From: a virus | Taxonomy: Duplodnaviria > Heunggongvirae > Uroviricota > Caudoviricetes | Virus record (IMG/VR): IMGVR_UViG_3300014205_008670 | Coordinates: 1 to 64,000 of that record | DNA: 64,000 bases | Direction: 5' to 3' (one strand) | Part shown: positions 302-49,899 of the stretch, in pieces | Position numbering within the stretch: position 1 is the first letter of the stretch | Layout of the letters: every line of letters begins with the position of its first letter | Position numbers and translations under genes: made by a program | Notes under the pieces: generated by a model | The model's database searches: none | What the model was told of the DNA's origin: nothing | What the model saw: the letters and a program-made list of their open reading frames with translations, nothing else

Positions 302-760
302 ATGCCGAAAATATTAAATGTACCTAAAAGCAAACAAAAATATTCTTGGGATTGTGGTCCACATACATTTATATCTATAATTAAAGCATTAAAAAATACG
401 GTCCCTTCTGAAAACGAAATTATTAAAAATTTAAATGCAGATAAAAAGACTGGAACTGATCCGTTAAATTATATTGAAGCACTAAATAAAGAAAATATAA
501 AAAGTCATTTAATGGAGAACCCAGATATAGAAAAAATAAAGAAAGCAATTATATCAGGAAATCCTGTTGCTTTAATTGTTCAAGCCTATTCTGATTCAAA
601 GGAAGAAGTAATAAATTTAAAATCAGGACATTGGGTTGTATTGGTTGGAAGTGATAAAGATTATTTGTATTTCATAGATCCTTTAAGTAAGAGTGGAATT
701 ACAAAAATAAAAGAAAGTGATTTTCTTTATAGATGGAAAAACATAGTAAAAAAAAATCAA
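302..760 (+). other. C39-like papain-fold cysteine peptidase domain within the giant protein
   Basis: Cys in SWDCGPH (aa 18) and His in SGHWVVLVG (aa 110) at the spacing typical of C39 bacteriocin-processing peptidases. Confidence 0.6.
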
Positions 761-6700: not shown

Positions 6701-9700
6701 ATTAAATCTTTAGGGTCTGTAACAAAAAAAGAATCCGAATTTAGCATCAGTAAATATGACTTTAATATTTATTTAAATGGAGAAAAAAAAGAAGTTTCAA
6801 TTAATAGTGAACATATTTCATCCCCAGATAATTGTTTTAGAAGGGATCGTTCAAATACAAATTTAAGTGGGTTTATATTACAAAGTTTTCCATTATACGA
6901 AGAATTATATATGGATATTTTTAATAAAAAATATAAAAATATTATAGATGAAACTGCTAATGAAAATGATTTTGTTTTACTGAAAACAGATCCATTATTT
7001 TATTTACTAGGAGAATTAGCAGGAAATGAAGCATCATATATTTTCGTTAATAGACATAAAGTTATTGATAGAGAAACATATAATAAAATATCTAATCCAT
7101 TTTCCTATAGTGTTACTACTAATGATTTTCTTGAGTTATATAAAAAAATAATTTCTAAAATTCCACAAAATATTAGGAAGTCTTTTGAAAAGCAAAATAT
7201 TGAACATCTGTTTAATTTTAAAATAAACGATCCATTAAAAAGTAATACTTGGACCTATTTGTGCTCTGGTGTTTTTTCACCTGAATTTATTCAATCTTTA
7301 ATCGAAAAATGGCCAGAAGATGCAAGAAAGGTAAGAAATTTAATTAAGTCTAATTCTAGTGAAGAAGTAAATAATGAACTAAAAGAAAAGATTGATATTT
7401 TTTCAGATAAAAAATTAAAAAATTTAAACAAAGATATTTCAGAATTTTTACTTGGTCAAAATAATTCAAAATTATTCCATGTTTCAGATTTTCCTGAACT
7501 AAAAGAATTTTCTACAGATTTTTTAAACTTTTTTTTAAAAAACAACGATAAAGAAACATACAACTATCAAGAAAGTGTAAATGAAACTAAACTTCAATCA
7601 GCTTTAAAAAACTTGGAAAAAATAGAAATATATATAGTGGATAGCCATAACTTAATAGAACAGTTTGGTGAAGAACAATTGAGAGGCTATAGAATTCATC
7701 CTGAAAATATTTCTGGATTTTATTCTGGTCCATATAATATTTTCCAAAAACCAAATCCTATTATAGTTATTTTTTCTGATAATACAAGTTCTGCTGAGGA
7801 TATATGTGAATCTGTTTCAGAGATATTGGGAATGAGACCTATTGGCTCAACTGGTTTAAATCTAAGAAAAGAACAAACACTATGGCATGAAACAACTCAT
7901 GGTTTAATAGATTTAGCAATTGGAGATATTGAAAAGGAAAGAAATTATTATGAAAACACAACAACATGGCTTTCTGATATTGAAGAAGTTTTAACAATTT
8001 CTTATGGCAATTTAGACTATATAAAAAATAGAGTTTCTGAAATGGTTGAAAGAACATTTCCTAAAGACAAAAAAATGATAGAAGGGTTTATCGAAAATCT
8101 AAAAAAAGATTTAATAAAAGAATTCCCATTGGAATTTTACGGTGTTTATTCAGAAAAAGCAAAAATAGAAATAGACGAATACGTAAAAGAAGAATTACCA
8201 GAAATTCTTTCAAAAGAAAATATGGACTCCTTAAAACAATCAATTGTTTCTATGTTTTCAAAATTCTTTTTATCAAAGATGTTAGTCCAAAAATTTGACT
8301 CTATTAATAGTATAGGTGATGATAGAAATAAACTAAAGTTCCCTTCTGATAAAATAGTTCCAGAAGTAAATGAAGAACCTTATGTGCAAAATAAAAAAGA
8401 TGAATTTATTTTAGAATTAGAAAAAAGAAGCGATTACCAAGACTTTATAAATAAAGTAAAAGAAAGAATAAAAGGCATTACCTTTAGCAAAAACAAAGAT
8501 ACTATGTATGAATATAAATCATATATAAATAATACTAAAAACAATATGAGTCCTATTTTTACTATTTATGATCTGATTAGATTTATATATGATCAAAACT
8601 TTTACAGTTTAAGTGATGTTGATGTAAATAAAATAAATCCATATTTTGAAGATATTATACCAGAATCACTACTTAATGATATAACTGAATATGTAATAAT
8701 AGAAAAAGAAAAACTTAATATACCCTTAAATATTCAGGAACCTGAAATTACATCAGAAGAGGCTGAAGATTTGGGAAATATGATTTATGACACAAGAGAA
8801 AATATTGGAAAAGGATGGGAATGGTTAGCTTTTAATGAAAATAAATTGTATAAAAAAGCTAAAACAAATTGGTATAAAATTTCTCAACATACAAATACAT
8901 TGGTTTGTATAGATATACAAGAAGAATGGAAAGAATATTTTTCAAACATTGATATGTGTGATTTTTTTAAATTTATTAATAGTTATGATAAAACTATTTA
9001 CGTAGTAGATTCTTTGGCTTCAGGAATTGACTTTTATAGCGATTATAAAGCAAAACTTCCAAAAGATTTGGCATTTCAATTCTATAACAATAGCAATGAA
9101 GACAAAAATAATGACGAATTTGATTTTGATAGTTTGTATGAATATGGAGAATGTCCAGTTTCTCCTAAAATAGATTTTCAGATAAAAAACTATGGAGGAA
9201 TACTAAGAGAGGCTATTGATGCTGGCATGGACAATGAAGTAAAGTTTATGCTTAAATCTATTATAAACAAAGATATAAATGAAGAAAAGTTAGATTATAT
9301 AGAAGAAACAATTAAAGAACTTGATAAACATACTGGAATTGATTATTGGGAAAAAGAATTTGACTTTCTAGAAGCAGATCAATTGGCACAAAAAATTTAT
9401 GAAAAATTTTCTTATCATTCCTCAGAACTTATCCAAGGTATTCCTAATGATTTTTGGAAAAGCTTAGGCTCTATAGATATTTGTGGTGGTGGAATTAATG
9501 AATGTTTAGCGGAAGTTACTGCTGCATTAGATATCCTTGATGTTCAATATAATATTATTAATAAATATACTTATGGAAGCAATGAAAAGTTTTATAAAAA
9601 CTCATTGGCCAAAACTTTGACAAACAATGATTTGTCCATTACAGTACCTAATTATAGAAAGGAAAGTAAAATGCTTACTTTTGCTCAAATGGCAGATGGT

Positions 9701-11413
9701 GGTAAGGCGTATAATACAGACCTACAAATAGATCTTCCGCCTACGTTAAACAATATTCTAAATACTTTAAAACAAAACAATTCATACGGATTGCTTGTTG
9801 GTGGTGCTGTCCGAGATAAATTTCTTGGTCTAGAACCAAAAGATTTAGATATAGAAGTTTATGGCATAAGCTATGAACAGCTTTTTAAAATCTTAAGTAA
9901 ATTTGATAGAAAAAATTCTCCAGATGTTGTTGGTAAATCATTTGGGATAATAAAAATAACAGATAACGAAGGTAATGACTATGATTTTTCAATTCCAAGA
10001 AGAGAATCAAAAACAGGAGTTGGACATCAGGGATTTTCTGTAGAGTTTGATCCTAATATTACTCCAAAGGAAGCTGCTGCAAGAAGAGACTTTACTATAA
10101 ACTCTTTGTCGTACGATCCTTTGACACATCAGGTTTTTGATTATTTTGGTGGTGTAGATGATATACAAAATAAAATTCTTAAAGCTACTTCTCCTGCATT
10201 TGCCGAAGATTCACTAAGGGCATTAAGAGGGATGCAGTTTGCCGGAAGATTTGGCTTTTCTTTAGAAGATCAAACAGCAGAAATGATAAGGGGTTTAATA
10301 AGCGATTATCCGTCTCTAGCTAAAGAACGTGTTTCTGGTGAATGGATGAAGTTTTTTACAAAGAGTAATCATCCCGGAAAAGCTTTAGAATTTTTAATTA
10401 AAAGTGGTTGGATAAAATTATATCCAGAAATAAATGCCTTTATTCCAGACAAATATGAAGAACAATTGTTAGAAGAAATAAAGTCAGATAATTATCCGGG
10501 TATTTCTGGACATAAAAGTATAAGGCAAGAGTTTGAATGGCATCCCGAAGGGTCTGTTTTACTTCACACAATTTATGTTTTAGAAGCTTCTGCAAAAATT
10601 GCTGACGAACAAAACATAAAGGGTGAAGACAGGGCTGTTATTTTAATGTCAGCATTATGTCACGATTTAGGTAAAGCTACACATACAAAAATAGAAAATA
10701 AAAAAGGAATACAAAGAGTAACTTCTCCGGGACATGAAGAGGCTAGTGTTCCTTTAGCTAAAACATTTTTAGAAAGTGTTGGAATCAAAAAAAATCTTAT
10801 TGACAGAGTTTTGCCATTAGTAGGAAATCATATGCAGCATATAACATATGATTCAAAATCTAAAAACGGAAATGTCAGACAAATTGCTGAAAGAATTTTT
10901 CCGGCTACAATAAGAGAATTAGAGTTAGTAATAAGATCAGATATGGGAGGAAGACCTCCATTACCCGGTGGGTTACCTCCAGAAGCAGAGCAAATGGTTT
11001 CTGACGCTAGAGAACATGGTGTTTATGAAGGTAAATATCAAAACCTAATTCAAGGAAGAGATTTGATTGAAGAGTTTAATCTTAAGCCCGGAATAATTAT
11101 GGGGGAAACATTAAAATTTGTTAGACAAAAAATGTTAGAGGGTTTGGTTTCCAGTCGTGAAGAAGCACTTATTGTTGCTGATGATTTTTTGAAGAGAAAA
11201 CAAAATTTTATTAACGGTAAAGATGTTTTAGAGGTAATGGAAACAGATAAAGGGGGACCGTTTGTAAAAGAAATATTAGATTTGGCATGGGAACAACAAA
11301 AAAATGGGACACTAAAGACAAGAGAAGAATCAATTAACTGGTTAATTGGATATGTTAAAGGTAATCTAGAAATAAAACCAGAAACAAACAACAACATTAT
11401 TTCAGAGGAATAA
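302..11413 (+). CDS. giant multidomain (polyvalent-type) protein, 3703 aa. N-terminal C39-like cysteine peptidase, internal ParB/Srx-like motif, Cys4 zinc ribbon, C-terminal class II CCA-adding/poly(A) polymerase head + HD phosphohydrolase domain
   Basis: Uninterrupted 11.1-kb ORF. N-terminus has KYSWDCGPHTF with a downstream SGHWVVLVGSDKDYLYFIDP His box, a papain-like C39 pattern. ITGHEGRHRMEALRR resembles the ParB/sulfiredoxin DGHHR box. CPDCG...CKDCG is a zinc ribbon. The C-terminus has LLVGGAVRDKFLGLEPKDLDIE (GGxVRD + DxD), RRDFTINSL (class II motif C), EDSLRALRGMQFAGRFGF (motif D), then HPEG...CHDLGK (HD domain). Confidence 0.85.
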   Translation: MPKILNVPKSKQKYSWDCGPHTFISIIKALKNTVPSENEIIKNLNADKKTGTDPLNYIEALNKENIKSHLMENPDIEKIKKAIISGNPVALIVQAYSDSKEEVINLKSGHWVVLVGSDKDYLYFIDPLSKSGITKIKESDFLYRWKNIVKKNQPEKRTAIVIDYKIDKIIKIKNDIDLMPMSLGTNKMNYWYKKASQEENIIEKLENDDYKSHEELISDLENSVLIWREVRLKNENIVILSTDGKKEYVAIVHDGYNDFDDIFDWFYGISDIDIYNYVDYLEENDFWEGVSEGYFLYHATDCKNIESIKEKGLIVDCKTRAITNRNMPCAVFSHPNDTSLDSYGDCVIGINVGLMKKDGYMPKTMKENGMEEAEVREILAHKLGIEDFDIYDELNKGMSQGLDPETIAFLGNIPPKYLIFPENIKANKSSSIKIATKMTQEDFIKQFNDFQKKINKVFEKYSYINPEYIKEYKEDFFKNLNRFIEHYDYTSLDLDELMKILDDISYAYKNAGWIMDSAFSKKQETKNISNLKDFRSEVYYLVMQFKKGFLENKNPEGRLDVLQEVFDLVDYSLDELSLKYKNYSEIIKKAVSIWSEAKTKIAEQIFQSPNRLFNYVRHFISKIEDLDTETSDIDFNSEINIKEHYYDGICPDCGMEIPENSKVNDSCKDCGHVFNLEYELTEEDLDRLEDSIDKEFREDLYRLGYNSLRKLEKFLNIEKTKEFEHYEGFEDFGNNIFLNNKSWYKLSQNEDHININFDPSGTGSTPNNLNIEYLGFTKYLTPNEFLSNAAPLQEVNEKTIQYFIDKYKNGEPISNPTFYAIYDEDKNVLEITGHEGRHRMEALRRVSPNEKVPVHIFPQGLRARHFVDKNVNEISFVPEKYSEKKYSGKNFIKNSANIGEQIDLFENDVELSPFTLLNGYFKILEEIKPYLDESVFVHFDQTNIDEMVQEEMESQGNDYANNYLENYDDIYGQLIHSLRDQGYFDEKENTYKSLLQEISNKIKVKSMEILSLEPFSKLVIDKINNNDFFLTKILNKEIFDDNENYFKNNEDVDILKNIYLNGDFNSICSQYVDINYLIDNFPSIFDYYSYRGLEKGPGYETLIPILNEYDDSNFSIEEEDLVDLIPYQSKIEWILEEYNDQILESIQEGTYYSLKESYSEMARKLGVGKNEKDLENFTILDLFVNAGINIIEDPENPEGSYSDSFIEELKGGVSYLYEFFKDNKDESVDFSENCLYLLKQMQEVSVSIVISGLNLDYDFYKDNVLSMFKNQLKLTYPGSFELNFAKFIMEMCHEYAEIRDEKKEEKDEILETYHLNISKKDELLSRISITKSEISSLEDLKKTGNISIVDYEKRNSELENKMEKENRRLETLEYDIKKIQEKLQVAQENIPEFLNLRNCNVAKILMNKIAVLLENKDKDSFFPKFCYITNQNVNRNVKKNWIAKNAIPFLETYLNTTPNPNGSIQILYQKMGPLAGTDRETIPQNVAAGKNYVLKWLSSRVFDSGEEIHNCIQPFFDHTIMGQQFLGKFLEDEFLGERNSNTINLVLRARKDLIEKKHLIPGEKNPPSEVLWSPSKKIENYIVPDKKRDILAYHEYSLALLYGGVGTGDTLGMFSVELLKEGYSNKAIEHFLSKINFEKGQNITPYSSNHGNFDFVITSKLDPINVVAGDKTNCCFSIGDAAESSLVDAFTNPDSGFLIVYIAGTKTLVAQSWIRLNYDSEKTPSLYLDNIETVSKYKFSTDLTKCFKLFAEKIKKDRNYKNVYVGKNLSKIIFHSPAIRPNDIPRFPGAKSGIYSDLSTGAWIIANKKTDKNWYKISGVEDFVSGIQNYDINEVIEKYPNESELNEEQKRNIRSISFSTNYGSSKSKTKLFLKYPQYTYYSLYVLEQYFLGYNPEEKEILLIWNKMDKEKDQNIPDSLPAYIYNDIAKNYTNMISTEFATNVFRNKTKYPGALIYACAKKFPDLYKCLNSNNPDTVLDSLLKKIEFPNEKNIEESIEITRNMVRPLNNIDGTVLSEEEYKKEKEIKNQNQKYFIDFFVELNKEEKKLFNILKRDSESNFTSIYSSSSYWNISLDSANLYLLLDKVLDSYKNKNNYIDKDSGFRVYNFTIKEKQLSYISFCGNLISKEILENIIKSLGSVTKKESEFSISKYDFNIYLNGEKKEVSINSEHISSPDNCFRRDRSNTNLSGFILQSFPLYEELYMDIFNKKYKNIIDETANENDFVLLKTDPLFYLLGELAGNEASYIFVNRHKVIDRETYNKISNPFSYSVTTNDFLELYKKIISKIPQNIRKSFEKQNIEHLFNFKINDPLKSNTWTYLCSGVFSPEFIQSLIEKWPEDARKVRNLIKSNSSEEVNNELKEKIDIFSDKKLKNLNKDISEFLLGQNNSKLFHVSDFPELKEFSTDFLNFFLKNNDKETYNYQESVNETKLQSALKNLEKIEIYIVDSHNLIEQFGEEQLRGYRIHPENISGFYSGPYNIFQKPNPIIVIFSDNTSSAEDICESVSEILGMRPIGSTGLNLRKEQTLWHETTHGLIDLAIGDIEKERNYYENTTTWLSDIEEVLTISYGNLDYIKNRVSEMVERTFPKDKKMIEGFIENLKKDLIKEFPLEFYGVYSEKAKIEIDEYVKEELPEILSKENMDSLKQSIVSMFSKFFLSKMLVQKFDSINSIGDDRNKLKFPSDKIVPEVNEEPYVQNKKDEFILELEKRSDYQDFINKVKERIKGITFSKNKDTMYEYKSYINNTKNNMSPIFTIYDLIRFIYDQNFYSLSDVDVNKINPYFEDIIPESLLNDITEYVIIEKEKLNIPLNIQEPEITSEEAEDLGNMIYDTRENIGKGWEWLAFNENKLYKKAKTNWYKISQHTNTLVCIDIQEEWKEYFSNIDMCDFFKFINSYDKTIYVVDSLASGIDFYSDYKAKLPKDLAFQFYNNSNEDKNNDEFDFDSLYEYGECPVSPKIDFQIKNYGGILREAIDAGMDNEVKFMLKSIINKDINEEKLDYIEETIKELDKHTGIDYWEKEFDFLEADQLAQKIYEKFSYHSSELIQGIPNDFWKSLGSIDICGGGINECLAEVTAALDILDVQYNIINKYTYGSNEKFYKNSLAKTLTNNDLSITVPNYRKESKMLTFAQMADGGKAYNTDLQIDLPPTLNNILNTLKQNNSYGLLVGGAVRDKFLGLEPKDLDIEVYGISYEQLFKILSKFDRKNSPDVVGKSFGIIKITDNEGNDYDFSIPRRESKTGVGHQGFSVEFDPNITPKEAAARRDFTINSLSYDPLTHQVFDYFGGVDDIQNKILKATSPAFAEDSLRALRGMQFAGRFGFSLEDQTAEMIRGLISDYPSLAKERVSGEWMKFFTKSNHPGKALEFLIKSGWIKLYPEINAFIPDKYEEQLLEEIKSDNYPGISGHKSIRQEFEWHPEGSVLLHTIYVLEASAKIADEQNIKGEDRAVILMSALCHDLGKATHTKIENKKGIQRVTSPGHEEASVPLAKTFLESVGIKKNLIDRVLPLVGNHMQHITYDSKSKNGNVRQIAERIFPATIRELELVIRSDMGGRPPLPGGLPPEAEQMVSDAREHGVYEGKYQNLIQGRDLIEEFNLKPGIIMGETLKFVRQKMLEGLVSSREEALIVADDFLKRKQNFINGKDVLEVMETDKGGPFVKEILDLAWEQQKNGTLKTREESINWLIGYVKGNLEIKPETNNNIISEE
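2650..2900 (+). other. ParB/Srx-like (ParB N-terminal nuclease-like) motif region within the giant protein
   Basis: LEITGHEGRHRMEALRRV resembles the ParB/sulfiredoxin GxxRxxA / DGHHR box. Weaker than the other domain calls. Confidence 0.4.
9740..10860 (+). other. class II tRNA nucleotidyltransferase (CCA-adding / poly(A) polymerase-like) head-neck plus HD domain, C-terminal part of the giant protein
   Basis: GGAVRD, DLDIE, RRDFTIN and EDxLRxLRxxRF motifs are present in canonical order. The downstream HD domain (H...HD...D) matches bacterial Cca. Confidence 0.8.
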
Positions 11414-12929: not shown

Positions 12930-13322
12930 ATGAGCGATAATATTAGAATGGTAATAGAAGACATTGTATCTTCTTATTTTGAAAAAATAAATTGGGAAAA
13001 TATTGTAGGACCTGCTGTTTTAGAAAAAATAGAAGTTAAAACTAAAGCAGACTATAATTTTGTTAATGAAATTGTTGATAGCATTTCTATGGCTTTATCT
13101 GATAATGTTTCTGGAGAACAAATAACAGAAGAAATAATGGAACAAATTAAACTTAGAACAGTTTCTTTTGACCAAACACCTAATGTTGAAGAATCTGGAA
13201 ATATGATTTGCTCTAAGTGTTACCGTCCGTTTGGAGTTTGGACATCAACCTCTGGAAATAGTTTCTCAGATCAAACAATAATTTCTAATGGAAAATCTAT
13301 ATTAATGATGGATGATTTCTAA
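12930..13322 (+). CDS. hypothetical protein
   Basis: ATG at 12930 with a GGAGAA RBS. The ATG at 12825 sits in a promoter-like region and is unlikely. Confidence 0.5.
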   Translation: MSDNIRMVIEDIVSSYFEKINWENIVGPAVLEKIEVKTKADYNFVNEIVDSISMALSDNVSGEQITEEIMEQIKLRTVSFDQTPNVEESGNMICSKCYRPFGVWTSTSGNSFSDQTIISNGKSILMMDDF

Positions 13323-13513
13323 TGAATAAAAAAGAATATGTTTTTGATAGTGAAAACCCAGATAAATATCCATTTGGATATAGTGTAGTAAAACGTAAAG
13401 AAAGAGCCGGAATGGAATATGATTTATATATTCCAAACTTACCTCCTATAGGCAATTGGACAAGATCTGTTGCTATTTTTAATAGCAGATTTATTTTTGT
13501 ATTAGAAAAATAA
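13322..13513 (+). CDS. hypothetical small protein
   Basis: ATGA overlap with the upstream gene suggests translational coupling. Confidence 0.35.
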   Translation: MNKKEYVFDSENPDKYPFGYSVVKRKERAGMEYDLYIPNLPPIGNWTRSVAIFNSRFIFVLEK

Positions 13514-13520
13514 TATTTTT

Positions 13521-13560
13521 GGCCGTTACCCTTGTCATTTGACTTCCATTGCAGTGAAAT
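13521..13560 (+). promoter_or_regulatory. candidate sigma70-like promoter (GGCC element, -35 TTGTCA, 17 nt, -10 TGAAAT)
   Basis: GGCCgttaccCTTGTCA-17nt-TGAAAT upstream of the SPFH-M28-RtcB gene string. Confidence 0.35.
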
Positions 13561-13615
13561 TTCCCTGCATGTGATTTGCTAATTTTAGTTTGTAAATTTA
13601 AAGGAGATCCAAAAA

Positions 13616-14971
13616 ATGGATTTTAAAAAACTAACACGCTTTGTAGTTCCTGTTATTATTTTTGCAATTGTTCTTTTCAGTTTGCTTGCTGGCTCTTATC
13701 TTGTTGAAGAAGTAAGGGCTGGTGAATATCATATTGTTCAATATCCATCCGGCAAATTAGTGGCAAAGATGGAGCCGGGTTGGTATGGTCAATGGTTCGG
13801 AACGGTTACAAAATGGCCAAAAGCATTTACCCTTAACTTTGATCGGAATCCTGATACTACCGTTGATTCTCAGGCACAAAACGATATAGATATTACTGCA
13901 ATTGAAGTTAGGTTTGCAGACGGAACTATTGCTCCAATTGAAGGTTCGTTAAGAGGAGAACTTCCACGAAGTCCGGAAATGGCAGTTGATCTTGTTTCTA
14001 AATTTGGATATAGATCAGTTCATGAACTTGTAGAAAATCTTGTAGCAAGACGAGTCCGTGTGTCTGTTAATAGTTCTGCAACAATGATGACCGCAATTGA
14101 ATCTTCTTCAAGTCGAAGAAATGATTTCATTCAACATTCTTGGGATCAAATTCAAAACGGACTATATCATACTAATACAGTATCTCAAGTTGTAGAAGGA
14201 CAAGTAAAACAAGAAGTTAAAGTGGCTAAAATTACAATAGGACCAGACGGGAATCCTATTCGTCAAAACGAAACAGGTGGATTGGATGACTTAGGTGTTG
14301 TTTTATCAAACTTTGAAATTAAGTCCTTTATTTATCCGTCAGAGTTAGAAAAACAAATTGCAAGTCAAAGAGATGCAATTATGGCTATTTCAGTGGCTAG
14401 AGCTAATGCAGAAAAGGCAAACGAAGAAGCCAAAACATCAGAAGCTCAAGGTAAAGCCAAAGTTATGACGGCTCAATATGAAGAAGAACAAATGAAAATT
14501 CGTGCTACAGTTAAAGCTGATCAAGAAAAAGCAGTTGCTTTAATTATGGCAGAAAAAGAAAAACAACAAGCCACAATTGCGGCACAAAAAAGAGTTGAAG
14601 TTGCAGAGCTTGAAAAGGAAGAGGCTGAAATTCAAGCACGTAGAGGTTTGGAAGTTGCAAAACTTAATAGGCAAGCCTCTGAAGAAGAATCCGCAAGAAT
14701 TATTTCTCTTGGTGCAGCAGAAGCTAAAGCGAAACAAGCTGTTTTTAATGCAAATGGTGCATTAACAGAAAAACTTAAAGCTTGGACTGATGCACAAGTT
14801 GCTTGGGCGCAAGCATATGGTATTCGTAGAGTCCCCGGAATTGTTCTTGGAACAAAAACTGATGACGGAACCGAAACCCTAGACCTTCAAACAGCACTAA
14901 GTGTAAAGTTATTAAATGATCTTAATCTTGATCTTGGATTAAATTCAAATACTTCTCCAACAAACAACTAA
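13616..14971 (+). CDS. membrane-anchored SPFH/band-7 (HflK/C, flotillin-like) protein
   Basis: N-terminal TM helix (VVPVIIFAIVLFSLLAGSYL), a globular domain, then a long Ala/Glu/Lys-rich coiled coil typical of SPFH proteins. Strong RBS AAAGGAGAT. Confidence 0.5.
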   Translation: MDFKKLTRFVVPVIIFAIVLFSLLAGSYLVEEVRAGEYHIVQYPSGKLVAKMEPGWYGQWFGTVTKWPKAFTLNFDRNPDTTVDSQAQNDIDITAIEVRFADGTIAPIEGSLRGELPRSPEMAVDLVSKFGYRSVHELVENLVARRVRVSVNSSATMMTAIESSSSRRNDFIQHSWDQIQNGLYHTNTVSQVVEGQVKQEVKVAKITIGPDGNPIRQNETGGLDDLGVVLSNFEIKSFIYPSELEKQIASQRDAIMAISVARANAEKANEEAKTSEAQGKAKVMTAQYEEEQMKIRATVKADQEKAVALIMAEKEKQQATIAAQKRVEVAELEKEEAEIQARRGLEVAKLNRQASEEESARIISLGAAEAKAKQAVFNANGALTEKLKAWTDAQVAWAQAYGIRRVPGIVLGTKTDDGTETLDLQTALSVKLLNDLNLDLGLNSNTSPTNN

Positions 14972-14982
14972 GAGGCTGAGAA

Positions 14983-15885
14983 ATGAAAATTTTGACTTCA
15001 AAAGACTTTGTGTTTAGCAATTTAAAAAAAGAAAATATTTCTGAAAATATTCTATCAGAAATTTCAACAAATTTCTTGGAAAAAATTGTTAGAGATATTT
15101 CGTATCCAAGACATTACACCGAAGAGTTTGAATCAAATAAAAAAGCCCGTAACTATATTGTAGAAGAATTAAAAAAGAATTCTTGGAATGTAAAACTTCA
15201 TGACTATTGTGATAATATTATTGCCACATTACCACCTTCTGAAAATCTTTCTAATTCTTCTAGAATTATTGGAGCTACACATTATGATAGTGTTCCTAAT
15301 TGCCCCGGGGCTGATGATAATGGTAGCGGAATAGCGGTTCTTTTGGCTGCTTCAAAAGTATTACCAAAAATGAATTTGAAAGTAAACCCAACTCTTATTT
15401 TCTTTAATCAAGAAGAAGATGGACTTTTGGGATCTTTTGAATTTGTAAAAAATAACAAAAAACAACTACGTGAAACAGTAAAGTCTGTGCATGTAATGGA
15501 AATGGTTGGTTATACATCTAACAAACAATTAACCCCAAAAGGATTTCCAGTAAGTATTGGAAATGTTGGTGATTTCTTGGGAATAGTTTCAAACAATAAA
15601 TCAAATATTGAATTGCTAAATCTTCTTAAGAAAAACGCAATTTATTGCCCAAACCTTCTTTCAAAGGGAATCTATCTATCAGAGGGATTTGAAAGAGTAT
15701 TTCAAGATGTAATTAGAAGTGATCATTATCCATTTTGGTTAGAAAAAATACCCGCCCTTATGTGGACAGATACTTCAAATTTTAGAAATTTTAATTATCA
15801 TAAATCAACAGACACATCAGAAACTTTAGATTATGGTTTTATGCACGAGGTTACAAAATTATTTGTTTCTTTATTTATAGAATAG
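14983..15885 (+). CDS. M28-family zinc aminopeptidase
   Basis: HYDSVPNCPGADDNGSG (His/Asp zinc ligands), NQEEDGLLGS (Glu-Glu) and a downstream DHYPF, the canonical M28 motifs in order. Confidence 0.8.
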   Translation: MKILTSKDFVFSNLKKENISENILSEISTNFLEKIVRDISYPRHYTEEFESNKKARNYIVEELKKNSWNVKLHDYCDNIIATLPPSENLSNSSRIIGATHYDSVPNCPGADDNGSGIAVLLAASKVLPKMNLKVNPTLIFFNQEEDGLLGSFEFVKNNKKQLRETVKSVHVMEMVGYTSNKQLTPKGFPVSIGNVGDFLGIVSNNKSNIELLNLLKKNAIYCPNLLSKGIYLSEGFERVFQDVIRSDHYPFWLEKIPALMWTDTSNFRNFNYHKSTDTSETLDYGFMHEVTKLFVSLFIE

Positions 15886-15895
15886 GAAAAATAAA

Positions 15896-18508
15896 ATGTC
15901 TCTTAACAAAACAGATAGTGGCGTTTTTTACTTTGGGGTTCTTCCAGAAGAAGAAGTTTTAATTCAAGCTAGTCGTCATCTAGTTGATAACCGTTGTGTT
16001 TTTATGGGGTTAATGTCAGATTGTCACTTAGGGTATTCAACCCCAATAGGTGGAGTAGCTGTTTATAAAGATGTTATTTCTCCATCTGGAGTGGGATTTG
16101 ATATTTCATGTATTGTCGAAGGATCAGAGGTTACTACAGGTTCTGGAGAACTTGTAAGGATTGAGGATATCTCCAAAGAGAATGTGGGACTTACTATGAA
16201 GTTGTCCGGATCTCTTGTTGAAACAAATATTACTGGTGTATCTTGCAAAGAAGTCGAAGAAATATTAGAGATAGAATTAGAAAATGGAGATTTTATAAGA
16301 TTAACAGAAGATCATCTTCTTTTGACGGAATATGATGGCGTGAAATCTTGGCGGGAAGCAAATAGTTTTTCTATGGGAGACAGGATTATGGTCTCTCCTT
16401 ATATTGGTTGTAAAGGGAAATTAACGAAACATCATATTTTCATGAGAATTTTGGGATATTTGATGGGAGATGGACATCTTCCAAGAGATAGCAATAGAAG
16501 CGTTTTTTATTCTTCTATTGATAAAGATGCTGATTCCATTGCAAAAGATATAGAAAAATATTATGAGTATCTTGTTCATCAACAAGATATACAAAAATCT
16601 ATATCTGTAAATCCTAATGACATTCCATCTATAGATACAGTAAATGTTGGAATTTTTCGTAGGGACAAAAAAACTATTACAGGAAAAAACACAAGAGAAA
16701 ATTGTGTTTATTTTTTTTCCAGTTATATTAGGAAAGAATTTGAACTTTACGGGTGTCCTGTTGGTAAAAAAGAGTTTGATATTTCAAGACTACATGAAAT
16801 CTTTTCAAACCTTTCGTTGGTTGATAAGTCCAATTTCATCGGAGGGATTTTGGGCGCTGAAGCGGGATGTCCAAAAATTGGTAAGAATAATGTTTTTAAC
16901 CCTTGGATAAAGATGGGAGGTATAAACGGAAGAGATTTCTTGGAATTTATCTCTTCTCTTCTTGAGGAATTCGATTTCGAATCTCATATTACTCTCTCAA
17001 CTGAAGAAGATGGAGAAAAAAAAGCAACATATGTCCTCCAAATCATTGGAGGGATGGACGAGTTTGAAAGATTTTATAGAACTTTCAAATTTTTTTATTC
17101 TGATTATAAAGAGATAGAAAAGGCAAAAGTTCTTTCTTATATTTGGAGTAAAAAGAAAATAGTTAACAAAAAAATTGCAGCCAGAGAACTGTGTCGCTTT
17201 CTCAGGTCTCAAGGTTGCAAAGTGAATTCTTTGCATAAAGAAGCTTCTAAAATGCTTGGATATGAAGTAAATAAAAGATTTGCTCTAAGGTCCATTTATG
17301 AGGATTGCGGAGATCCAAGAATTAGTGAAGAAAAACCAATTATCAATACAAATGATCAAGGAATTTGGGTCAAGATTGTATCTATTAATAAACTTAAAGA
17401 AAAGACAAAAGTTTACGATATAGGAATTGACCATGTAGGTCATAACTTTATTGCAAATGGAGTAGTTGTGCATAACTGTGGGAATAAAGCTGTAAAGTTA
17501 AACATAAAGGGTGTTACTATAAGAAAAGATATAAAAAAAATAATTGAAGAAATATCGAAAAATATTTCATTTGGAGTAGGTAGATGCAATAACAAAAAAG
17601 TAGATCATGAATTGTTTGATGATCCTACTTGGAATTTAGATTGTATTAAAGAAATATCAAGAGGTGTTAACAAAAAAAATGATTTAAGAGATATGGCAAT
17701 ATCCCAATTGGGCACTATTGGTTCCGGAAATCACTATCTAGACCTGTTTGTAGACGAAAATGATGATGTATGGATTGGAGTTCATTTCGGATCTCGTGGA
17801 CTTGGACATAAAATAGCAACATATTTTCTACATGAAGCTGGTGGAAAAGATGATATTAATGCCTATCCTACATTAATTAGTGTAAATAGCGACTTAGGAC
17901 AAGAGTATATTTCTTGTATGAAGCTGGCTGGTAGATATGCCTATGCCGGAAGAGATTGGGTTTGTAATACTGTTGCAAATATACTTCGTGGTAAAATAAT
18001 AGAAGAAGTACATAACAATCATAATTTTGCATTTGAAGAAACTCATTTTGGAGAAAGTTATTGGGTTATTAGAAAAGGTGCCACGCCTGCTTTTCCGGGT
18101 CAAAAAGGTTTTGTTGGCGGAAGCATGGGAGATAACAGCGTAATTATTGAGGGTGTAGACTCAGAAGAATCAAGACAATCATTTTATTCAACGGTACATG
18201 GCGCTGGTCGTGTTATGGGAAGAATGGAAGCTAAAGGAAAGTTTAAACAAAAAAAAGATTCTTCAGGGAAAAAAACCGGAGAATTTGAATGTGTAAGAGA
18301 ACCTAAAGTAAAAAAAGAAGATATGCTAAAATGGATTAAAGAAAAGGGAGTTGAACTTTATGGTGCAGATGTTGATGAATCTCCATTTGTTTATAAAAGA
18401 TTAAATGAAGTTCTTGGGTTTCATTCAAACACAATAAAAATCCTTCATGACTTACAACCAATTGCAGTAATGATGGCTGGTAACGAAAGAGATCCGTACA
18501 AAGATTGA
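15896..18508 (+). CDS. rtcB: RtcB RNA ligase (3'-phosphate/5'-OH) interrupted by an intein
   Basis: N-extein has SDCHLGYSTPIGGV and SPSGVGFDIS, followed by the C-extein CGNKAV. Extein total is ~414 aa, like E. coli RtcB. The 456-aa insert has LAGLIDADG blocks. Confidence 0.85.
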   Translation: MSLNKTDSGVFYFGVLPEEEVLIQASRHLVDNRCVFMGLMSDCHLGYSTPIGGVAVYKDVISPSGVGFDISCIVEGSEVTTGSGELVRIEDISKENVGLTMKLSGSLVETNITGVSCKEVEEILEIELENGDFIRLTEDHLLLTEYDGVKSWREANSFSMGDRIMVSPYIGCKGKLTKHHIFMRILGYLMGDGHLPRDSNRSVFYSSIDKDADSIAKDIEKYYEYLVHQQDIQKSISVNPNDIPSIDTVNVGIFRRDKKTITGKNTRENCVYFFSSYIRKEFELYGCPVGKKEFDISRLHEIFSNLSLVDKSNFIGGILGAEAGCPKIGKNNVFNPWIKMGGINGRDFLEFISSLLEEFDFESHITLSTEEDGEKKATYVLQIIGGMDEFERFYRTFKFFYSDYKEIEKAKVLSYIWSKKKIVNKKIAARELCRFLRSQGCKVNSLHKEASKMLGYEVNKRFALRSIYEDCGDPRISEEKPIINTNDQGIWVKIVSINKLKEKTKVYDIGIDHVGHNFIANGVVVHNCGNKAVKLNIKGVTIRKDIKKIIEEISKNISFGVGRCNNKKVDHELFDDPTWNLDCIKEISRGVNKKNDLRDMAISQLGTIGSGNHYLDLFVDENDDVWIGVHFGSRGLGHKIATYFLHEAGGKDDINAYPTLISVNSDLGQEYISCMKLAGRYAYAGRDWVCNTVANILRGKIIEEVHNNHNFAFEETHFGESYWVIRKGATPAFPGQKGFVGGSMGDNSVIIEGVDSEESRQSFYSTVHGAGRVMGRMEAKGKFKQKKDSSGKKTGEFECVREPKVKKEDMLKWIKEKGVELYGADVDESPFVYKRLNEVLGFHSNTIKILHDLQPIAVMMAGNERDPYKD
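16109..17476 (+). mobile_element. intein with LAGLIDADG homing-endonuclease domain inserted at the RtcB catalytic Cys
   Basis: Starts at Cys (CIVEGSEV), ends ...NGVVVHN with +1 Cys. DOD motifs ILGYLMGDGHL and IGGILGAEAG. The flanking exteins rejoin to the RtcB DISCG active-site motif. Confidence 0.75.
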
Positions 18509-18513
18509 AAAGT

Positions 18514-18555
18514 GGCCAAAATAGTATTGCGGTTCAAAATGGTTTGTCGTACATA
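18514..18555 (+). promoter_or_regulatory. candidate promoter (GGCCA element, -35 TTGCGG, 17 nt, -10 TACATA) driving the Y-RNA region
   Basis: GTGGCCAAAATAGTATTGCGG-17nt-TACATAT. The -10-like TCGTACAT is shared with the 49810 promoter. Confidence 0.3.
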
Positions 18556-18609
18556 TATACCATAGTTGTTGAGCAAGAAAGTCTGTTCTTTGAAATTGTA
18601 GTAAGATTT

Positions 18610-18748
18610 TTACATTAGGTCGGACTGAGTTGATTATCCGCTCAGAGGTCCAAACGCAGGTTCGAATCCTGCCCAACTAGTAGTACTGGTTGGTCGTCTA
18701 GCGGTTCAGGACGGGAAAAAACTCAACTCTAATTTTTATCTAATGTAA
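18610..18748 (+). ncRNA. YrlA-like Y RNA with a circularly permuted tRNA-like module (T-arm, acceptor stem, D-arm) closed by a long-range helix
   Basis: T-arm GCAGG-TTCGAAT-CCTGC (18656-72). Acceptor 3' strand CCAACTA (18673-79), 5-nt loop, acceptor 5' strand CTGGTTGG. D-arm GTCT-AGCGGTTCA-GGAC (18696-712). Flanking strands TTACATTAG...GAGTTGA (18610-33) and TCAACTC...CTAATGTAA (18723-48) are complementary. GGTCGGA resembles the conserved Ro-binding GGUCCGA. Confidence 0.5.
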
Positions 18749-18749
18749 T

Positions 18750-19000
18750 TTAAAAATTAATGGGTCGAATGAAAACGATTATCAAATGCCTATTCGTTCT
18801 CAACTTTTTTATCCATTATTAAATTTCAACAATCTTGCAGGGCTTCGTTCCTGTTAGGTTGTTGAGACCCTGGTCAAAGGAAGGCAATCCCGAAGATTGC
18901 CTTCCCTAAAAATCTTCTGGGTCGTAGTAATTGATTATCCCTTCGATAGAGAACCGAGGAATCTTCCTCGTTACTTTCAATTACAGTTTTATCCAGAATT
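18750..19000 (+). ncRNA. possible additional Y-RNA-like modules or structured RNA
   Basis: Two more copies of the GGTCG-N-GATTATC motif (18762-90, 18919-41). Perfect 11-bp hairpin GGAAGGCAATC-ccgaag-GATTGCCTTCC at 18878-906. CGAGGA-atct-TCCTCG hairpin. No credible ORF. Confidence 0.25.
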
Positions 19001-19324
19001 TTTTATACGGTCTTACTATAGCTTTAGTTTAAATAACTTAAAACGTCAAGACATCTTTATTAACCATTCAATACAGCGACAGATTGTAGAATTAAAAATT
19101 CTATTTGTATTGAAATTAACTTATCAGAATTTAAAATAAAAATTCAGGTCGTATTTTGTAGATTACCCTTCCAATCAGAAAGAACAAATGATGTCTTGTT
19201 CGTAAATCTGTCAAAAACAAAACAAATTAATCCATGAGATTTATTTGTTTTTCTACAAAAAACTTTTATCTGGTTTTATTTTAAATTCTGAACACTTTAT
19301 TCCTACTATATAAGGAGTCGAATT

Positions 19325-21010
19325 ATGAGTGTTAAGGCTTATAAAAATATTGGAAAAAGAAATGCTGAAAAAAAGGCAACTCAAGGAACAAAGCTTGAGG
19401 GTCAAGTAAAAAATCATGATGGAGCATATGTATATAAGGTAGATGATTGGAATAAACTTGATCGTTTCCTTTTTCTTGGTACAGAAAATGGAAGTTACTA
19501 TGCTTCAGAAAAAAAACTTACCAAAGAAAGTGTAAAGAATATTTTGAAGCTTTTGGAGCTAGATGGGAAGAAGGTTGTTGATCGTGTTGTTGAAATTTCT
19601 CTTCTTGGATCAGCCCCAAAGAATGATCAGGCTTTATTTGTTCTTGCTTTAGCCTCTGCTGATAAAAATGTAGAAACTCGTAGAGCCGCATTTAATGCTC
19701 TTTCAAAAGTTGCTAGAATTGGTACTCATCTTTTCCATTTCGTAGAATTTCGTGAACAATTTGCTGGTTGGGGAAAAGGAATGAGAAAGGCTATTTCTAG
19801 TTGGTATGGAGATAAAGACCTTAAGGACCTTTCATTTCAGCTTGGAAAATATCAATCTCGTGATGGTTGGTCAAATAGAGACTTACTAAGACTTTCTCAT
19901 GCAAATCCTAAAGAGGATGAAAATAGATCTACTATTTATAAGTGGGTAGTTAGCCCAAAAGAAGTTAATGGAGATTACCTCAAGGTGGCTTCTCCTATTC
20001 TTAGTGCTTTTGATGAAATTAAATCTACTGATGATGAAAAAAGAATTTTAGAGCTTGTTACTGAGTTTAAACTTCCTCTAGAAATGATTCCTACCGATAA
20101 ACGTAGCCGTAAGGTTTATGAAGTAATGTTGAATAATTTTGGCATTACTGCACTTATTAGAAATCTAGGAAAACTTAGTGAATGTGGAATTCTTGATTCA
20201 GGTAACTTTTCTGAAGTGAATAAGGTTGTTAATAGACTAACAAACGTTGATGAAATTAAAAAAGGTCGTGTTCATCCTATTTCTACCCTAATGGCATTGC
20301 TTGTATATAAGAATGGTAAAGGGGTTAAAGGTGATTTGACTTGGAAACCAAATCCAAAAATCATTGACGCACTTAATGAGGCTTTTTATCTTGGATTTGA
20401 CTCAATTGAATCAACTGGAAAAAACATAATGCTTGCATTGGATGTTTCTGGTTCTATGAATAGCCCTATTGGTGGAACATTTCTTACTTGTCGAGAGGCG
20501 AGTGCAGCAATGGCAATGGCTGTTGCAAAAACAGAAAAGAACTACTTGATAACAAGTTTTAGTTCTAAGGGAAATGGATATTTATCTGGCGGACATAGAT
20601 TCTATGACAAATCTATCAGCAATGATTTCTTTAACGTGTCTGGATTAACTGAATTAAATATTACAAATAAAACAAAACTACCTGAAGTAATGGATAGTGT
20701 TAATAATCTTGATTTTACTGCCACAGATTGTTCTCTTCCAATGAGATGGGCTTTAAAAAACAAAATTAAATTTGATGCCTTTGTTGTTTATACAGACAAT
20801 GAAACTAACTGTTACAACCAAATCCAACCATCAGCGGCATTAAAGAGATATCGTGAAGAAATGGGAATAGATGCAAAGTTAATTGTAAATGCAATGACAG
20901 TTACTGATTTTACAATTGCAGATCCAAATGACAAAGGAATGCTTGATTGTATCGGATTTTCAAGTGATACCCCTCAAGTTATATCTCGCTTTATTAAAAA
21001 CGAATTCTAA
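19325..21010 (+). CDS. rsr: Ro60/Rsr ortholog (TROVE domain + vWA domain with MIDAS)
   Basis: N-terminal TROVE-like region. C-terminal vWA with MLALDVSGSM (DxSGS MIDAS). RBS AAGGAG. Confidence 0.8.
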   Translation: MSVKAYKNIGKRNAEKKATQGTKLEGQVKNHDGAYVYKVDDWNKLDRFLFLGTENGSYYASEKKLTKESVKNILKLLELDGKKVVDRVVEISLLGSAPKNDQALFVLALASADKNVETRRAAFNALSKVARIGTHLFHFVEFREQFAGWGKGMRKAISSWYGDKDLKDLSFQLGKYQSRDGWSNRDLLRLSHANPKEDENRSTIYKWVVSPKEVNGDYLKVASPILSAFDEIKSTDDEKRILELVTEFKLPLEMIPTDKRSRKVYEVMLNNFGITALIRNLGKLSECGILDSGNFSEVNKVVNRLTNVDEIKKGRVHPISTLMALLVYKNGKGVKGDLTWKPNPKIIDALNEAFYLGFDSIESTGKNIMLALDVSGSMNSPIGGTFLTCREASAAMAMAVAKTEKNYLITSFSSKGNGYLSGGHRFYDKSISNDFFNVSGLTELNITNKTKLPEVMDSVNNLDFTATDCSLPMRWALKNKIKFDAFVVYTDNETNCYNQIQPSAALKRYREEMGIDAKLIVNAMTVTDFTIADPNDKGMLDCIGFSSDTPQVISRFIKNEF

Positions 21011-21028
21011 CAATTACTGTTTATATCA

Positions 21029-21064
21029 AAAGCCTCAATTTCTAGAAATAGGTTTTGAGGCTTT
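21029..21064 (+). terminator. possible terminator hairpin after rsr
   Basis: AAAGCCTCAA ... TTGAGGCTTT, a 10-bp stem with a large 16-nt loop and a weak U tract. Confidence 0.3.
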
Positions 21065-21098
21065 ATCGTATTTAATTGTGTAAAATAATTTTACATAA

Positions 21099-21136
21099 GG
21101 CCAGTTGTTGACAAACAACAAAAAGTATTGAAAATA
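21099..21136 (+). promoter_or_regulatory. candidate promoter (GGCCA element, -35 TTGACA, 17 nt, -10 AAAATA)
   Basis: AAGGCCAGTTGTTGACA-17nt-AAAATA upstream of the IF3 gene. Confidence 0.3.
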
Positions 21137-21184
21137 AAGAAGTTACACATATTCTTAGGAAAGAAATTAGGAGAAAATTTTTAA

Positions 21185-21685
21185 ATGACAACAGAGTACG
21201 TTGCTAATGATGAGATTAGTTTTCAGGAAGTTACAGTAATCAATACAAATGGAGAAAATTTAGGGATTAAAAGGTTAGAGGAAGCACTAGAAATTGCTTC
21301 AAATGAAGACTTAGATCTTGTTGTTGTAAATCCAGATCCAGAGAATCCGGTTTGTAAAATCATAGACCTTTCAAAGTTTAGATATGAAAAGCGTCAAAAA
21401 GATAAGAAAAATCCAAAAAGACATAAAACAAAAGAAATTAGAATTTCTGTAAACATAGAAGAACATGATCTTAATATTAAAACTAAAAATATTGATAGAT
21501 TTTTGTCTCAAGGTTCAAATGTTCTTGTTAATATTAAATTTCCTACCCGCCAAAGAGATACAATTTCACTAACTATTAGCGAAATATTAAATAAAATTCA
21601 AACCCTTTTAAACACAAAACACCAAATTGAACTTGGTTCTTATGGTAGTTCTAATTATTCTACGGAGATTATTCCAATTAAATGA
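21185..21685 (+). CDS. infC: translation initiation factor IF-3 homolog
   Basis: ISFQEVTVINTNGENLGIKRLEEALEIASNEDLDLVVVNPDPENPVCKIIDLSKFRYEK aligns nearly residue for residue with the E. coli IF3 N-domain/linker (...[27 protein letters not shown]). The C-domain is also alignable. Confidence 0.85.
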   Translation: MTTEYVANDEISFQEVTVINTNGENLGIKRLEEALEIASNEDLDLVVVNPDPENPVCKIIDLSKFRYEKRQKDKKNPKRHKTKEIRISVNIEEHDLNIKTKNIDRFLSQGSNVLVNIKFPTRQRDTISLTISEILNKIQTLLNTKHQIELGSYGSSNYSTEIIPIK

Positions 21686-22377
21686 TTAATGTTCAAGAGC
21701 CTCCTAGGGTCTTGAATGAATATCAACGTGATGATAAAATATTAAAAAACCTTTACTTAGTAAACATTGTTGCAAAAGAGTATCGTTTTTTAGAAAACTC
21801 AAAATATGAGGATCTTATTCAAGAAGGACGAATCGGACTCATTAAAGCAGTAGATAAATTCGATCCAATCATAGGAACCAATTTTAAAACATATGCATTA
21901 TATCACATAAAATATAACATTCAAGATTTTCTTAGAAAAGAGTCATCTTTAGTATATATTCCTTATAATCGTCTTTGCAAGGCTTTTCGTCTACAAAGAT
22001 TTATACATTCTTTTATTCAAAATAAAAATGGAACCCCTCCTTCTGAAAAAGAAATGAGGGGTTTTCTTCATTGTAACTCAACATATCTAACAGATATACT
22101 GTTGATTGTGTTGATCTTAAATAATAAAATCAACAATATTGAAGAAAAATATTCGTATAGTAGTAATATGCATGTCAATATATTTAATTTAAATATTACT
22201 TCTATGATGAAAAGTCTTTACTATGAGGAAGAGTTGGTTTTAAAAGAAAAATATTTTGAAAACAAATCATTTAGAGAAATAGGTAGTATTTTAAATTTTT
22301 CACATGAAAAAATTAGAAAAATTCACAATAATGGTCTTTTGAGACTTAAATCTCTTTTGAAAGATTTAGAGGAATAA
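21682..22377 (+). CDS. sigma-70 family RNA polymerase sigma factor (regions 2 and 4)
   Basis: Region 2 RIGLIKAVDKFDPIIGTNFKTYALYHIKYNIQDFL. C-terminal HTH FREIGSILNFSHEKIRKIHNNGLLRLK (region 4). ATGA overlap with IF3. Confidence 0.7.
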   Translation: MINVQEPPRVLNEYQRDDKILKNLYLVNIVAKEYRFLENSKYEDLIQEGRIGLIKAVDKFDPIIGTNFKTYALYHIKYNIQDFLRKESSLVYIPYNRLCKAFRLQRFIHSFIQNKNGTPPSEKEMRGFLHCNSTYLTDILLIVLILNNKINNIEEKYSYSSNMHVNIFNLNITSMMKSLYYEEELVLKEKYFENKSFREIGSILNFSHEKIRKIHNNGLLRLKSLLKDLEE

Positions 22378-49809: not shown

Positions 49810-49850
49810 GGCCAACTTAAGTTGAACACTAGCCATAGTTCGTCGTACAT
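49810..49850 (+). promoter_or_regulatory. candidate promoter (TTTTGGCCA element, palindrome CAACTTAAGTTG, -35 TTGAAC, -10 TACAT)
   Basis: TTTTTGGCCAACTTAAGTTGAAC-17nt-GTACATTAT. Shares CCATAGTT and CGTCGTACAT strings with the 18514 promoter region. Confidence 0.3.
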
Positions 49851-49899
49851 TATTATTAGTTTTGTTTTACGGACATCATGTAGTTTAAAGGATTCAAAA

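Follow-up and report, generated by a model that had tools for sequence, protein, structure and literature searches.

A putative intein with a LAGLIDADG endonuclease interrupts the RtcB RNA ligase of a large phage at its metal-bridging cysteine

What becomes of an RNA ligase whose gene is interrupted, in frame, at the codon for its catalytic cysteine? The question is raised by an rtcB gene in a 64,000-nucleotide stretch of viral DNA (Caudoviricetes; IMG/VR record IMGVR_UViG_3300014205_008670, positions 1 to 64,000), referred to below as the window. A first-pass annotation, made from the sequence alone, had proposed that this gene encodes an RtcB split by an intein, with an N-extein ending in GVGFDIS and a C-extein beginning with CGNKAV; we confirmed both junctions and the position of the gene, 15896-18508 on the plus strand. 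Our reading is that the gene encodes a phage RtcB precursor carrying a class-1 intein with a LAGLIDADG homing endonuclease, and that the intein is excised before the ligase works. We put the probability of this reading at about 0.85.

The features of the gene are collected in Table 1. An AGGA-like ribosome-binding site precedes the open reading frame (ORF). Pfam finds RtcB on the precursor in two stretches that flank the insert (E 2.4e-60, 205 bits against a cut-off of 27), together with Intein_splicing (E 2.6e-18, 66.8 bits, cut-off 35.8) and, over residues 315-395, LAGLIDADG_3 (E 2.9e-6, 27.9 bits, cut-off 22.5). Since all three matches exceed their curated cut-offs, a chance origin of the observation is ruled out. 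The identification of the gene as rtcB, also made in the first pass, stands on the Pfam score and on alignment and Foldseek matches to solved RtcB structures. The product is predicted to be an RNA ligase of the 3'-phosphate/5'-OH type with GTP- and Mn-dependent activity. Computed masses are 98.1 kDa for the precursor, 46.1 kDa for the spliced ligase (414 residues) and 52.0 kDa for the intein.

The insertion site was located by aligning the spliced product with the RtcB of Pyrococcus horikoshii (Pho; 1uc2/4dwq). The alignment (E 1.2e-29) runs without a gap across the junction, where the query segment VISPSGVGFDISCGNKAVKLNI, that is VISPSGVGFDIS-CGNKAVKLNI, is matched to 22 Pho RtcB residues. 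With chain residues counted from the alignment start, the +1 Cys corresponds to Pho Cys98, and Asp69 to Pho Asp95; the insert lies between the equivalent of Pho Asn97, which is Ser in the window, and that of the metal-bridging Cys98. The annotation had placed the insert exactly at the catalytic Cys and had proposed an extein alignment as the check; the gapless alignment puts it immediately before this residue. The published splice junction of Pho RtcB is also Cys98 (PMC4150793). The RtcB catalytic residues, namely Asp42, His44, Asp69, Cys528, Asn612/His613, His630, His709 and His768, are present and are invariant in both RtcB alignments. Among them, Asp69, Cys528, His613, His630, His709 and His768 correspond to the metal-ligand and GMP-site set of Pho (Asp95, Cys98, His203, His234, His329 and His404, respectively), His768 being the GMP-accepting histidine.

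This position has direct consequences for the ligase. In Pho RtcB, Cys98 is a ligand of two Mn ions and bridges them, sharing M1 with His234 and His329 and M2 with Asp95 and His203, and replacement of Cys98 with Ala in RtcB abolishes all ligation steps (PMC9745838). Because Asp95 and Cys98 jointly bind M2, Cys98 bridges both metals and the Ala mutant loses every step, we strongly infer that RtcB activity depends on splicing. Only splicing would bring Asp69 and the Cys to a spacing of three residues within a single chain, which the binuclear Mn site needs. One Cys thiol would serve splicing first and catalysis second, and the precursor should therefore be inactive.

We next consider whether the insert has what splicing demands. 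Intein blocks A, B, F and G were all found in it, and its set of splicing residues is complete; the 456-residue length, the Cys1, the terminal His-Asn, the +1 Cys and the two LAGLIDADG motifs reported in the first pass are all present. Conservation was counted in an alignment of 56 RtcB precursors with an insert at the Cys98 site. None of the 56 departs at Cys1, the block-B His, the block-F Asp, the terminal Asn or the +1 Cys.

An AlphaFold2 model of the whole precursor has a mean predicted local distance difference test (pLDDT) score of 88.9, with the endonuclease domain mostly above 90. Searched against the PDB with Foldseek, the model matched human and Pho RtcB (8odp, 4dwq, 1uc2; E ~1e-17, target template modelling (TM) score ~0.53) as well as the TliVMA and PhoVMA inteins, PI-PfuI and PI-SceI (E 1e-13 to 1e-8). 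Further matches were the Ssp DnaB mini-intein, the intein homing endonuclease II entry 2cw7 (PI-PkoII) and the free-standing LAGLIDADG enzyme I-DmoI (target TM 0.6-0.74, E ~1e-5). The matches to I-DmoI, PI-PfuI and PI-SceI agree with the pseudo-dimeric alpha-beta-beta-alpha-beta-beta-alpha fold of such endonucleases. At the sequence level, the Mtu RecA and Pho RadA inteins matched weakly but in register at both ends. These results support the assignment of the insert as a class-1 HINT intein, and the complete conservation of the chemistry suggests that it is competent to splice.

Table 1. Features of the rtcB gene, its predicted intein and the adjoining rsr region (window positions; conservation counts from the 56 precursors)
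Feature	Position	Strand	Details
rtcB precursor ORF	15896-18508	+	ATG start, 870 aa, intact frame over 870 codons
RtcB N-extein	15896-16108	+	71 aa, C-terminal end GVGFDIS; carries Asp42 and His44 (aligned to Pho Asp65 and His67) and Asp69 (= Pho Asp95)
Predicted class-1 intein	16109-17476	+	456 aa, CIVEGSEV ... GVVVHN; HINT domain split by double-motif LAGLIDADG endonuclease
Intein block A (CIVEGSEVTTGSG)	16109-16147	+	Cys1 (precursor Cys72), codon TGT 16109-16111; Cys 56/56
Intein block B (FIRLTEDHLLLTEY)	16292-16333	+	TxxH = TEDH, intein Thr66/His69; His 56/56, Thr 47/56, Ser 9/56
LAGLIDADG motif 1, ILGYLMGDGHL	16448-16480	+	catalytic-position intein Asp121; Asp 53/56
LAGLIDADG motif 2, FIGGILGAEAG	16835-16867	+	acidic intein Glu251; Glu 49/56, Asp 3/56 (52/56 acidic)
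Intein blocks F and G (KTKVYDIGIDHVGHNF.ANGVVVHN)	17402-17476	+	VYD437...H445...VVVH455N456; Asp 56/56, His455 45/56, Asn 56/56
RtcB C-extein	17477-18508	+	343 aa plus stop, N-terminal start CGNKAV
+1 Cys codon TGT	17477-17479	+	Cys528, predicted splicing nucleophile and Pho Cys98 equivalent
YrlA-type Y-RNA-like gene	18617-18741	+	perfect tRNA-like T arm (GGTTCGAATCC), D-arm-like element
Three further Y-like units	18762-18814, 18919-18994, 19146-19271	+	(R)GGTCG..GATTAYC start, closing helix, TTTTATC(C/T) end
rsr (Ro60 orthologue, TROVE + vWA)	19325-21010	+	Pfam vWA_Ro60 1.1e-57, TROVE 3.7e-36

By the standard class-1 route, splicing would begin with an N-S acyl shift at Cys1, followed by attack of the +1 Cys (trans-thioesterification) and cyclisation of Asn456, which would release the 52-kDa intein; an S-N shift would then yield the 46-kDa ligase, ...GVGFDIS-CGNKAV.... 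The released intein is most likely a homing endonuclease, now or recently, although this is less certain than splicing. During co-infection, the freed intein would cut intein-free rtcB alleles, for example that of the related phage locus L183 described below, and copy itself in. It would then be a selfish element at a site where the host cannot delete it imprecisely.

Is the carrier a phage, as the first pass assumed, and do intein-free alleles exist among its relatives? Matches to phage protein families identify a portal protein (phrog_16240, 7.4e-35), a major head protein (phrog_2522, 5.9e-72) and a virion structural protein (phrog_1645, 1.2e-84) in the window, along with a head-maturation protease domain, and the portal, protease and major head genes establish that rtcB resides in a phage. 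The head protein of Bacillus phage G, a 497-kb phage, shares 54% identity with the major head protein of the window. Nearly all genes of the window lie on the same strand, and several encode very large proteins. The window comes from a large phage that is a relative of Bacillus phage G, and it lies within a metagenomic contig of 99 kb (ENA ERZ27247358 k141_879052).

An empty site was found in a second large phage. The product of rsr, the gene downstream of rtcB in the window, has a relative (P0123) that is 69% identical and occurs on contigs of up to 349 kb. A locus from a 180-kb contig carrying an Rsr of this type (L183) is syntenic with the window, with orthologues 43-73% identical, and has the order Hsp20 (minus strand), rtcB, a non-coding stretch, rsr, IF3, a sigma factor and a 1361-residue protein. 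Its rtcB is uninterrupted (427 residues), 64% identical to the spliced exteins of the window and colinear with them through GVGYDIACGNKAV. The intein-free site reads GGTGTTGGTTATGATATCGCT before and TGTGGTAACAAGGCTGTT after the insertion point, contiguously GGTGTTGGTTATGATATCGCTTGTGGTAACAAGGCTGTT, and a search of the L183 locus with the window intein gave no match. L183 came from a protein search; an IMG/VR scan with Rsr as a single protein returned no relatives, and megablast of window positions 13000-22000 against 50,697 deposited phage genomes gave no match. One of these two related large phages has the intein and the other lacks it, the pattern that a homing element leaves. In a neighbour-joining tree of the exteins, the window stands beside intein-free viral RtcBs and not with the intein-bearing bacterial clades.

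We next surveyed inteins at the Cys98 site. A homologue search with the full precursor found 210 relatives at E <1e-10, the best 120 of which were listed; this search favours intein carriers and gives no frequency estimate. About 70 of the best 120 of the 210 relatives, archaeal and bacterial, fit the pattern D-I-x:C...(H/S/G)-N:C-G (colons mark splice junctions), with inserts of 409-515 residues. Among the matches listed, the nearest full-length precursors are bacterial, led by Caldilineaceae (42-45% identity overall) and followed by Calidithermus chliarophilus, Longimicrobiaceae and Gemmatimonadota. In a GTDB sample, intein-sized RtcB inserts occurred in at least Aquificaceae, Poribacteria, Methanomassiliicoccus, Methanosarcinales, Woesearchaeota and Thaumarchaeota, among others, and Novikova et al. 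listed 27 bacterial and 10 archaeal RtcB inteins (PMC4760082). Searched alone against 5.8 billion protein clusters with a word-dependent tool, the window intein returned a single match, an archaeal RtcB intein (P0001). Its identity to other Cys98-site inteins is 20-34% over ~400 aligned residues, with shared blocks, and tblastn against the same 50,697 phage genomes found no match to it.

The archaeal inteins (P0001, P0049, P0062 and P0081) and that of Pho RtcB (PH1602) occupy the same site, with GVGFDIN:C...(H/S)N:CG(V/I)R compared with GVGFDIS:C...HN:CGNK in the window. The archaeal RtcB inteins share the plan of a class-1 HINT domain with a double LAGLIDADG endonuclease (460-515 residues), and their block G is nearly identical (HNFIANN-IVVHN, compared with HNFIANG-VVVHN). 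Identity to the window is, however, 20-26% for the intein and 29-32% for the C-extein. The archaeal hosts are long-form RtcBs of ~480 residues ending in ...GV.KG, whereas the window encodes the short bacterial/viral form of 414 residues ending in DPYKD, in a phage. The bacterial inteins of Caldilineaceae (P0003-P0008), Calidithermus chliarophilus (P0011) and Longimicrobiaceae/Gemmatimonadota (P0013-P0036) share site, RtcB subfamily and intein family with the window, at 47-59% identity for the C-extein and 28-34% for the intein. Unlike the window gene, these bacterial rtcBs lie in ordinary chromosomal contexts without rsr.

Phage precedents were also found. Corynebacterium phage Lederberg gp59 (MK977712), which a 2025 preprint survey counts among the phage hosts of RtcB inteins (supplement of 10.1101/2025.01.02.630785), carries an intein at the same Cys (GVDIG:CVDADTEY...FITGN:CGM). 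IMG/VR contains 526 relatives of the window RtcB, and 79 of the best 80 are intein-free; the remaining one, UViG_3300021406_000430 (L040), has a different intein of 311 residues at the same Cys (GVGFDIA:CLDGETEF...IITGN:CGNK). The Lederberg intein is of the same type as that of L040 and similar to it in size. Both are shorter than the window intein, end in Gly-Asn without the penultimate His and have no detectable similarity to it. Lederberg differs further in that its RtcB is of the E. coli type and its genome, at 45.6 kb, is not that of a jumbo phage. The first-pass annotation had given RtcB inteins as known in archaea and one in a phage-borne rtcB beside rsr as notable; this claim of novelty was its weak part, as RtcB inteins are also bacterial and Lederberg gp59 is a precedent at the exact site. 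The site and the kind of intein are already known, phages included, and it is the particular intein lineage that is new for phages.

Several other candidates were rejected. Microcystis phage Mwe-JY26 and Sinorhizobium phage AP-16-3 had appeared to carry divergent inteins at the same site, with matches beginning at residue 527/528; their genes encode 380-393 residues and are intein-free, and locus L008 was rejected as intein-free likewise. The inteins of the 'RtcB-like RNA ligase' of cluster J mycobacteriophages were dropped as phage precedents, as gp147 of Mycobacterium phage Bobby does not look like RtcB. By eye, gp147 (L101 13407-15809) looks more like an Rnl-type ligase, with an intein directly after KLHG (...TQKLHG:C...VHN:SS). 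The cluster J label is an annotation trap for counts of phage RtcB inteins. A metagenomic RtcB of the same subfamily as that of the window (P0043, from JGI) is without an intein at the Cys98 site and has a different one after HNHHNF (...HNHHNF:C...VVHN:CW); there are therefore at least two insertion points in this subfamily. A third RtcB intein site, FGST/CHGE, has been described in Anaeramoeba (PMC10710043).

Several points weigh against our reading of a mobile, splicing intein. The precursor model has a predicted template modelling (pTM) score of only 0.59, and its confidence is low at the N-terminal junction, over residues 67-71. The second LAGLIDADG motif (GAEAG) is non-canonical, though this form is the norm in the intein family of the Cys98 site. 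The extein tree is a neighbour-joining tree without support values, and the nearest intein relatives, at 33-34% identity, are too far away to gauge selection on the endonuclease. Splicing, DNA cleavage and inactivity of the precursor are all predictions from what was observed, namely the features of sequence and fold, the site, the conservation and the empty-site allele. Finally, the composition of the intein matches its surroundings and bears no trace of recent arrival: its GC content is 0.327, compared with 0.335-0.366 in the exteins, and its GC content at third codon positions 0.235, compared with 0.18. Equal in composition to its neighbours, the intein is therefore an old resident rather than a recent import, and its endonuclease may be decaying.

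It is possible, if doubtful, that splicing has been kept while the endonuclease is inactive or decaying, which would make the intein an immobile, fixed passenger inherited vertically in the phage lineage. A composition fully ameliorated to that of the phage fits such a history. So does the lack of close intein kin in the 5.8 billion protein clusters, where identity reaches 44% for the precursor and 33-34% for the intein among the matches listed, and so does the failure of the intein alone to find a tblastn match in the phage genomes. Phage RtcB inteins with decaying LAGLIDADG domains have also been described (supplement of 10.1101/2025.01.02.630785). However, Asp121 and Glu251 are kept in the window intein and conserved across the family, and the endonuclease domain is full length, is modelled with high confidence and matches I-DmoI and PI-PfuI. 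Moreover, an intein found in the window and lacking in L183 is the expected trace of an element that is active or was so recently.

We consider it unlikely that splicing is conditional and acts as a switch, in which Cys1 and the Mn-bridging +1 Cys would form a reversible disulfide or bind metal, so that RtcB is armed only when the redox state or the metal supply in the infected cell allows it. In favour, Cys is the nucleophile at both junctions, the active-site Cys of RtcB is sensitive to oxidation and copper (PMC9745838, PMC10630183), and the neighbours of the window rtcB, namely rsr, Y-like RNAs and Hsp20, make up with it a cluster for stress and RNA repair. Nevertheless, we found no support specific to the window locus, and the intein-free rtcB of L183, like the 79 intein-free genes among the best 80 viral loci, fits a dispensable selfish element better. 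If true, conditional splicing would be a post-translational switch that arms RtcB, Rsr and the Y-like RNA array for repair in the infected cell. That the precursor is unable to splice, with rtcB inactivated by a dead insertion, is highly improbable: nothing positive favours it, the frame is intact over 870 codons, and all class-1 splicing residues and RtcB catalytic residues are retained, which would be unexpected in a pseudogene.

The excised intein with a homing endonuclease remains our preferred reading, and the surroundings of the gene add a second subject. As the first pass had stated, rsr adjoins rtcB, starting 816 nt downstream of it. The gap between them is best read as an array of Y-RNA-like genes that would serve Rsr. 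The window has four copies of the motif GGTCG-N6-12-GATTAYC, all of them in this gap and on the plus strand, against an expectation of 0.02. The Rfam YrlA model aligns end to end with the unit at 18617-18741, but weakly (18.1 bits; gathering threshold 69), whereas a profile derived from L183 alone, from five of its units, picks out 18618-18740 in the window at E 3.6e-8. Against YrlA itself, three of these five units score E 2e-8 to 1e-5, which does not reach the gathering threshold. At gathering thresholds, Rfam found nothing in the whole window, nor did ARAGORN, and Rfam likewise found nothing on loci L020 and L001. A reading of the GGTCG..GATTATC repeats as sigma-70 promoters was rejected, given their 6-12 nt spacing and a scan that showed no enrichment.

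The array is longer in L183, where the region of ~3 kb between rtcB and rsr holds ten units (at 7177-9910) of the form GGGTCGGA...GGTTATC......TTTTTATCC. In both phages the units have a (G)GGTCG(GA)..G(G/A)TTAYC start, a covarying closing helix and a TTTTTATC(C/T) end, and some are YrlA-like, with a tRNA-like T/D-arm domain. Across the 14 units, pairing is better between the 5' and 3' arms of one unit than between a 5' arm and the 3' arms of different units (mean 7.07 compared with 6.08 of 8 positions), a result reached in none of 20,000 permutations. Minimum free energy folding of single units gave weak z-scores (-1.1 to -2.8), and support came from the comparison with L183. We know of no report of Y-RNA-like arrays as long as those of the window and L183. 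A tRNA-like gene lies inside the L183 array (9107-9187, plus strand; Rfam tRNA, 50.3 bits), for which ARAGORN gives a four-base anticodon (taaa) and no amino acid; no counterpart was found in the window.

YrlA-like RNAs have been described beside Ro60 in 254 bacteria and 22 phages (PMC4201824), and we found phage Ro60/Y-RNA loci in 355 deposited phage records. None of the 80 other viral RtcB loci (the best 80 of 526) has rsr within 4 kb of rtcB. The rsr-yrlA(-yrlB)-rtcB operons of Salmonella Typhimurium resemble the window in having rtcB, Y-RNA-like genes and rsr together on one strand. In contrast to operons of this type, the window has no rtcA or rtcR that we could see, its Y-like units are four in tandem (ten in L183), and its rtcB bears an intein. 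In the window, rtcB, the Y-like RNAs and rsr form a phage RNA-repair and quality-control cluster in a relative of phage G. Directly downstream of rsr, the window encodes translation initiation factor IF3 and a sigma-70-family factor (21185-22377, plus strand), an order conserved in L183 (12273-13481). A protein of 3703 residues (302-11413, plus strand) has a C-terminus resembling CCA-adding enzymes (PolyA_pol head, HD and tRNA_NucTran2_2; residues 3165-3624) and an N-terminal C39-like peptidase domain. By these domains it would be another tRNA-repair function close to rtcB and rsr.

Other mobile-type elements were noted elsewhere in the window. The portal gene (36675-40157, plus strand) contains an insert of 397 residues (37020-38210; ...YQWR:CSKNTF...GFKISN:CRFF) with the LAGLIDADG motifs YWLIGLIAADGT and ILGGYFDGDGSF, which matches Pfam LAGLIDADG_3 (6.4e-9) and PI-PfuI (E 9.4e-6); a match to a Pfam splicing domain was not found in this insert. 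The portal gene probably carries a second intein. The C-terminal end of its protein has a DUF559/Vsr-like endonuclease domain (residues 1080-1150). A further ORF (49822-52020, plus strand; 732 residues) combines a LAGLIDADG_2 endonuclease domain (residues 210-382, 7.4e-19) with an N6/N4 DNA methyltransferase domain. Two inteins and this LAGLIDADG_2-methyltransferase ORF suggest a genome rich in homing-endonuclease elements.

The finding leaves knowledge of inteins or of RtcB in general unchanged, and for RNA biologists the Y-RNA-like array beside rsr may be of greater interest than the intein. The window gene, from a relative of phage G, is a further clean and well-documented example of how inteins lodge at the residue of an enzyme that is under the tightest constraint. 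The filled and empty rtcB alleles of the window and L183 offer a ready system for homing between large phages, and the window rtcB lets one ask whether an RNA-repair ligase stays inert until it is spliced.

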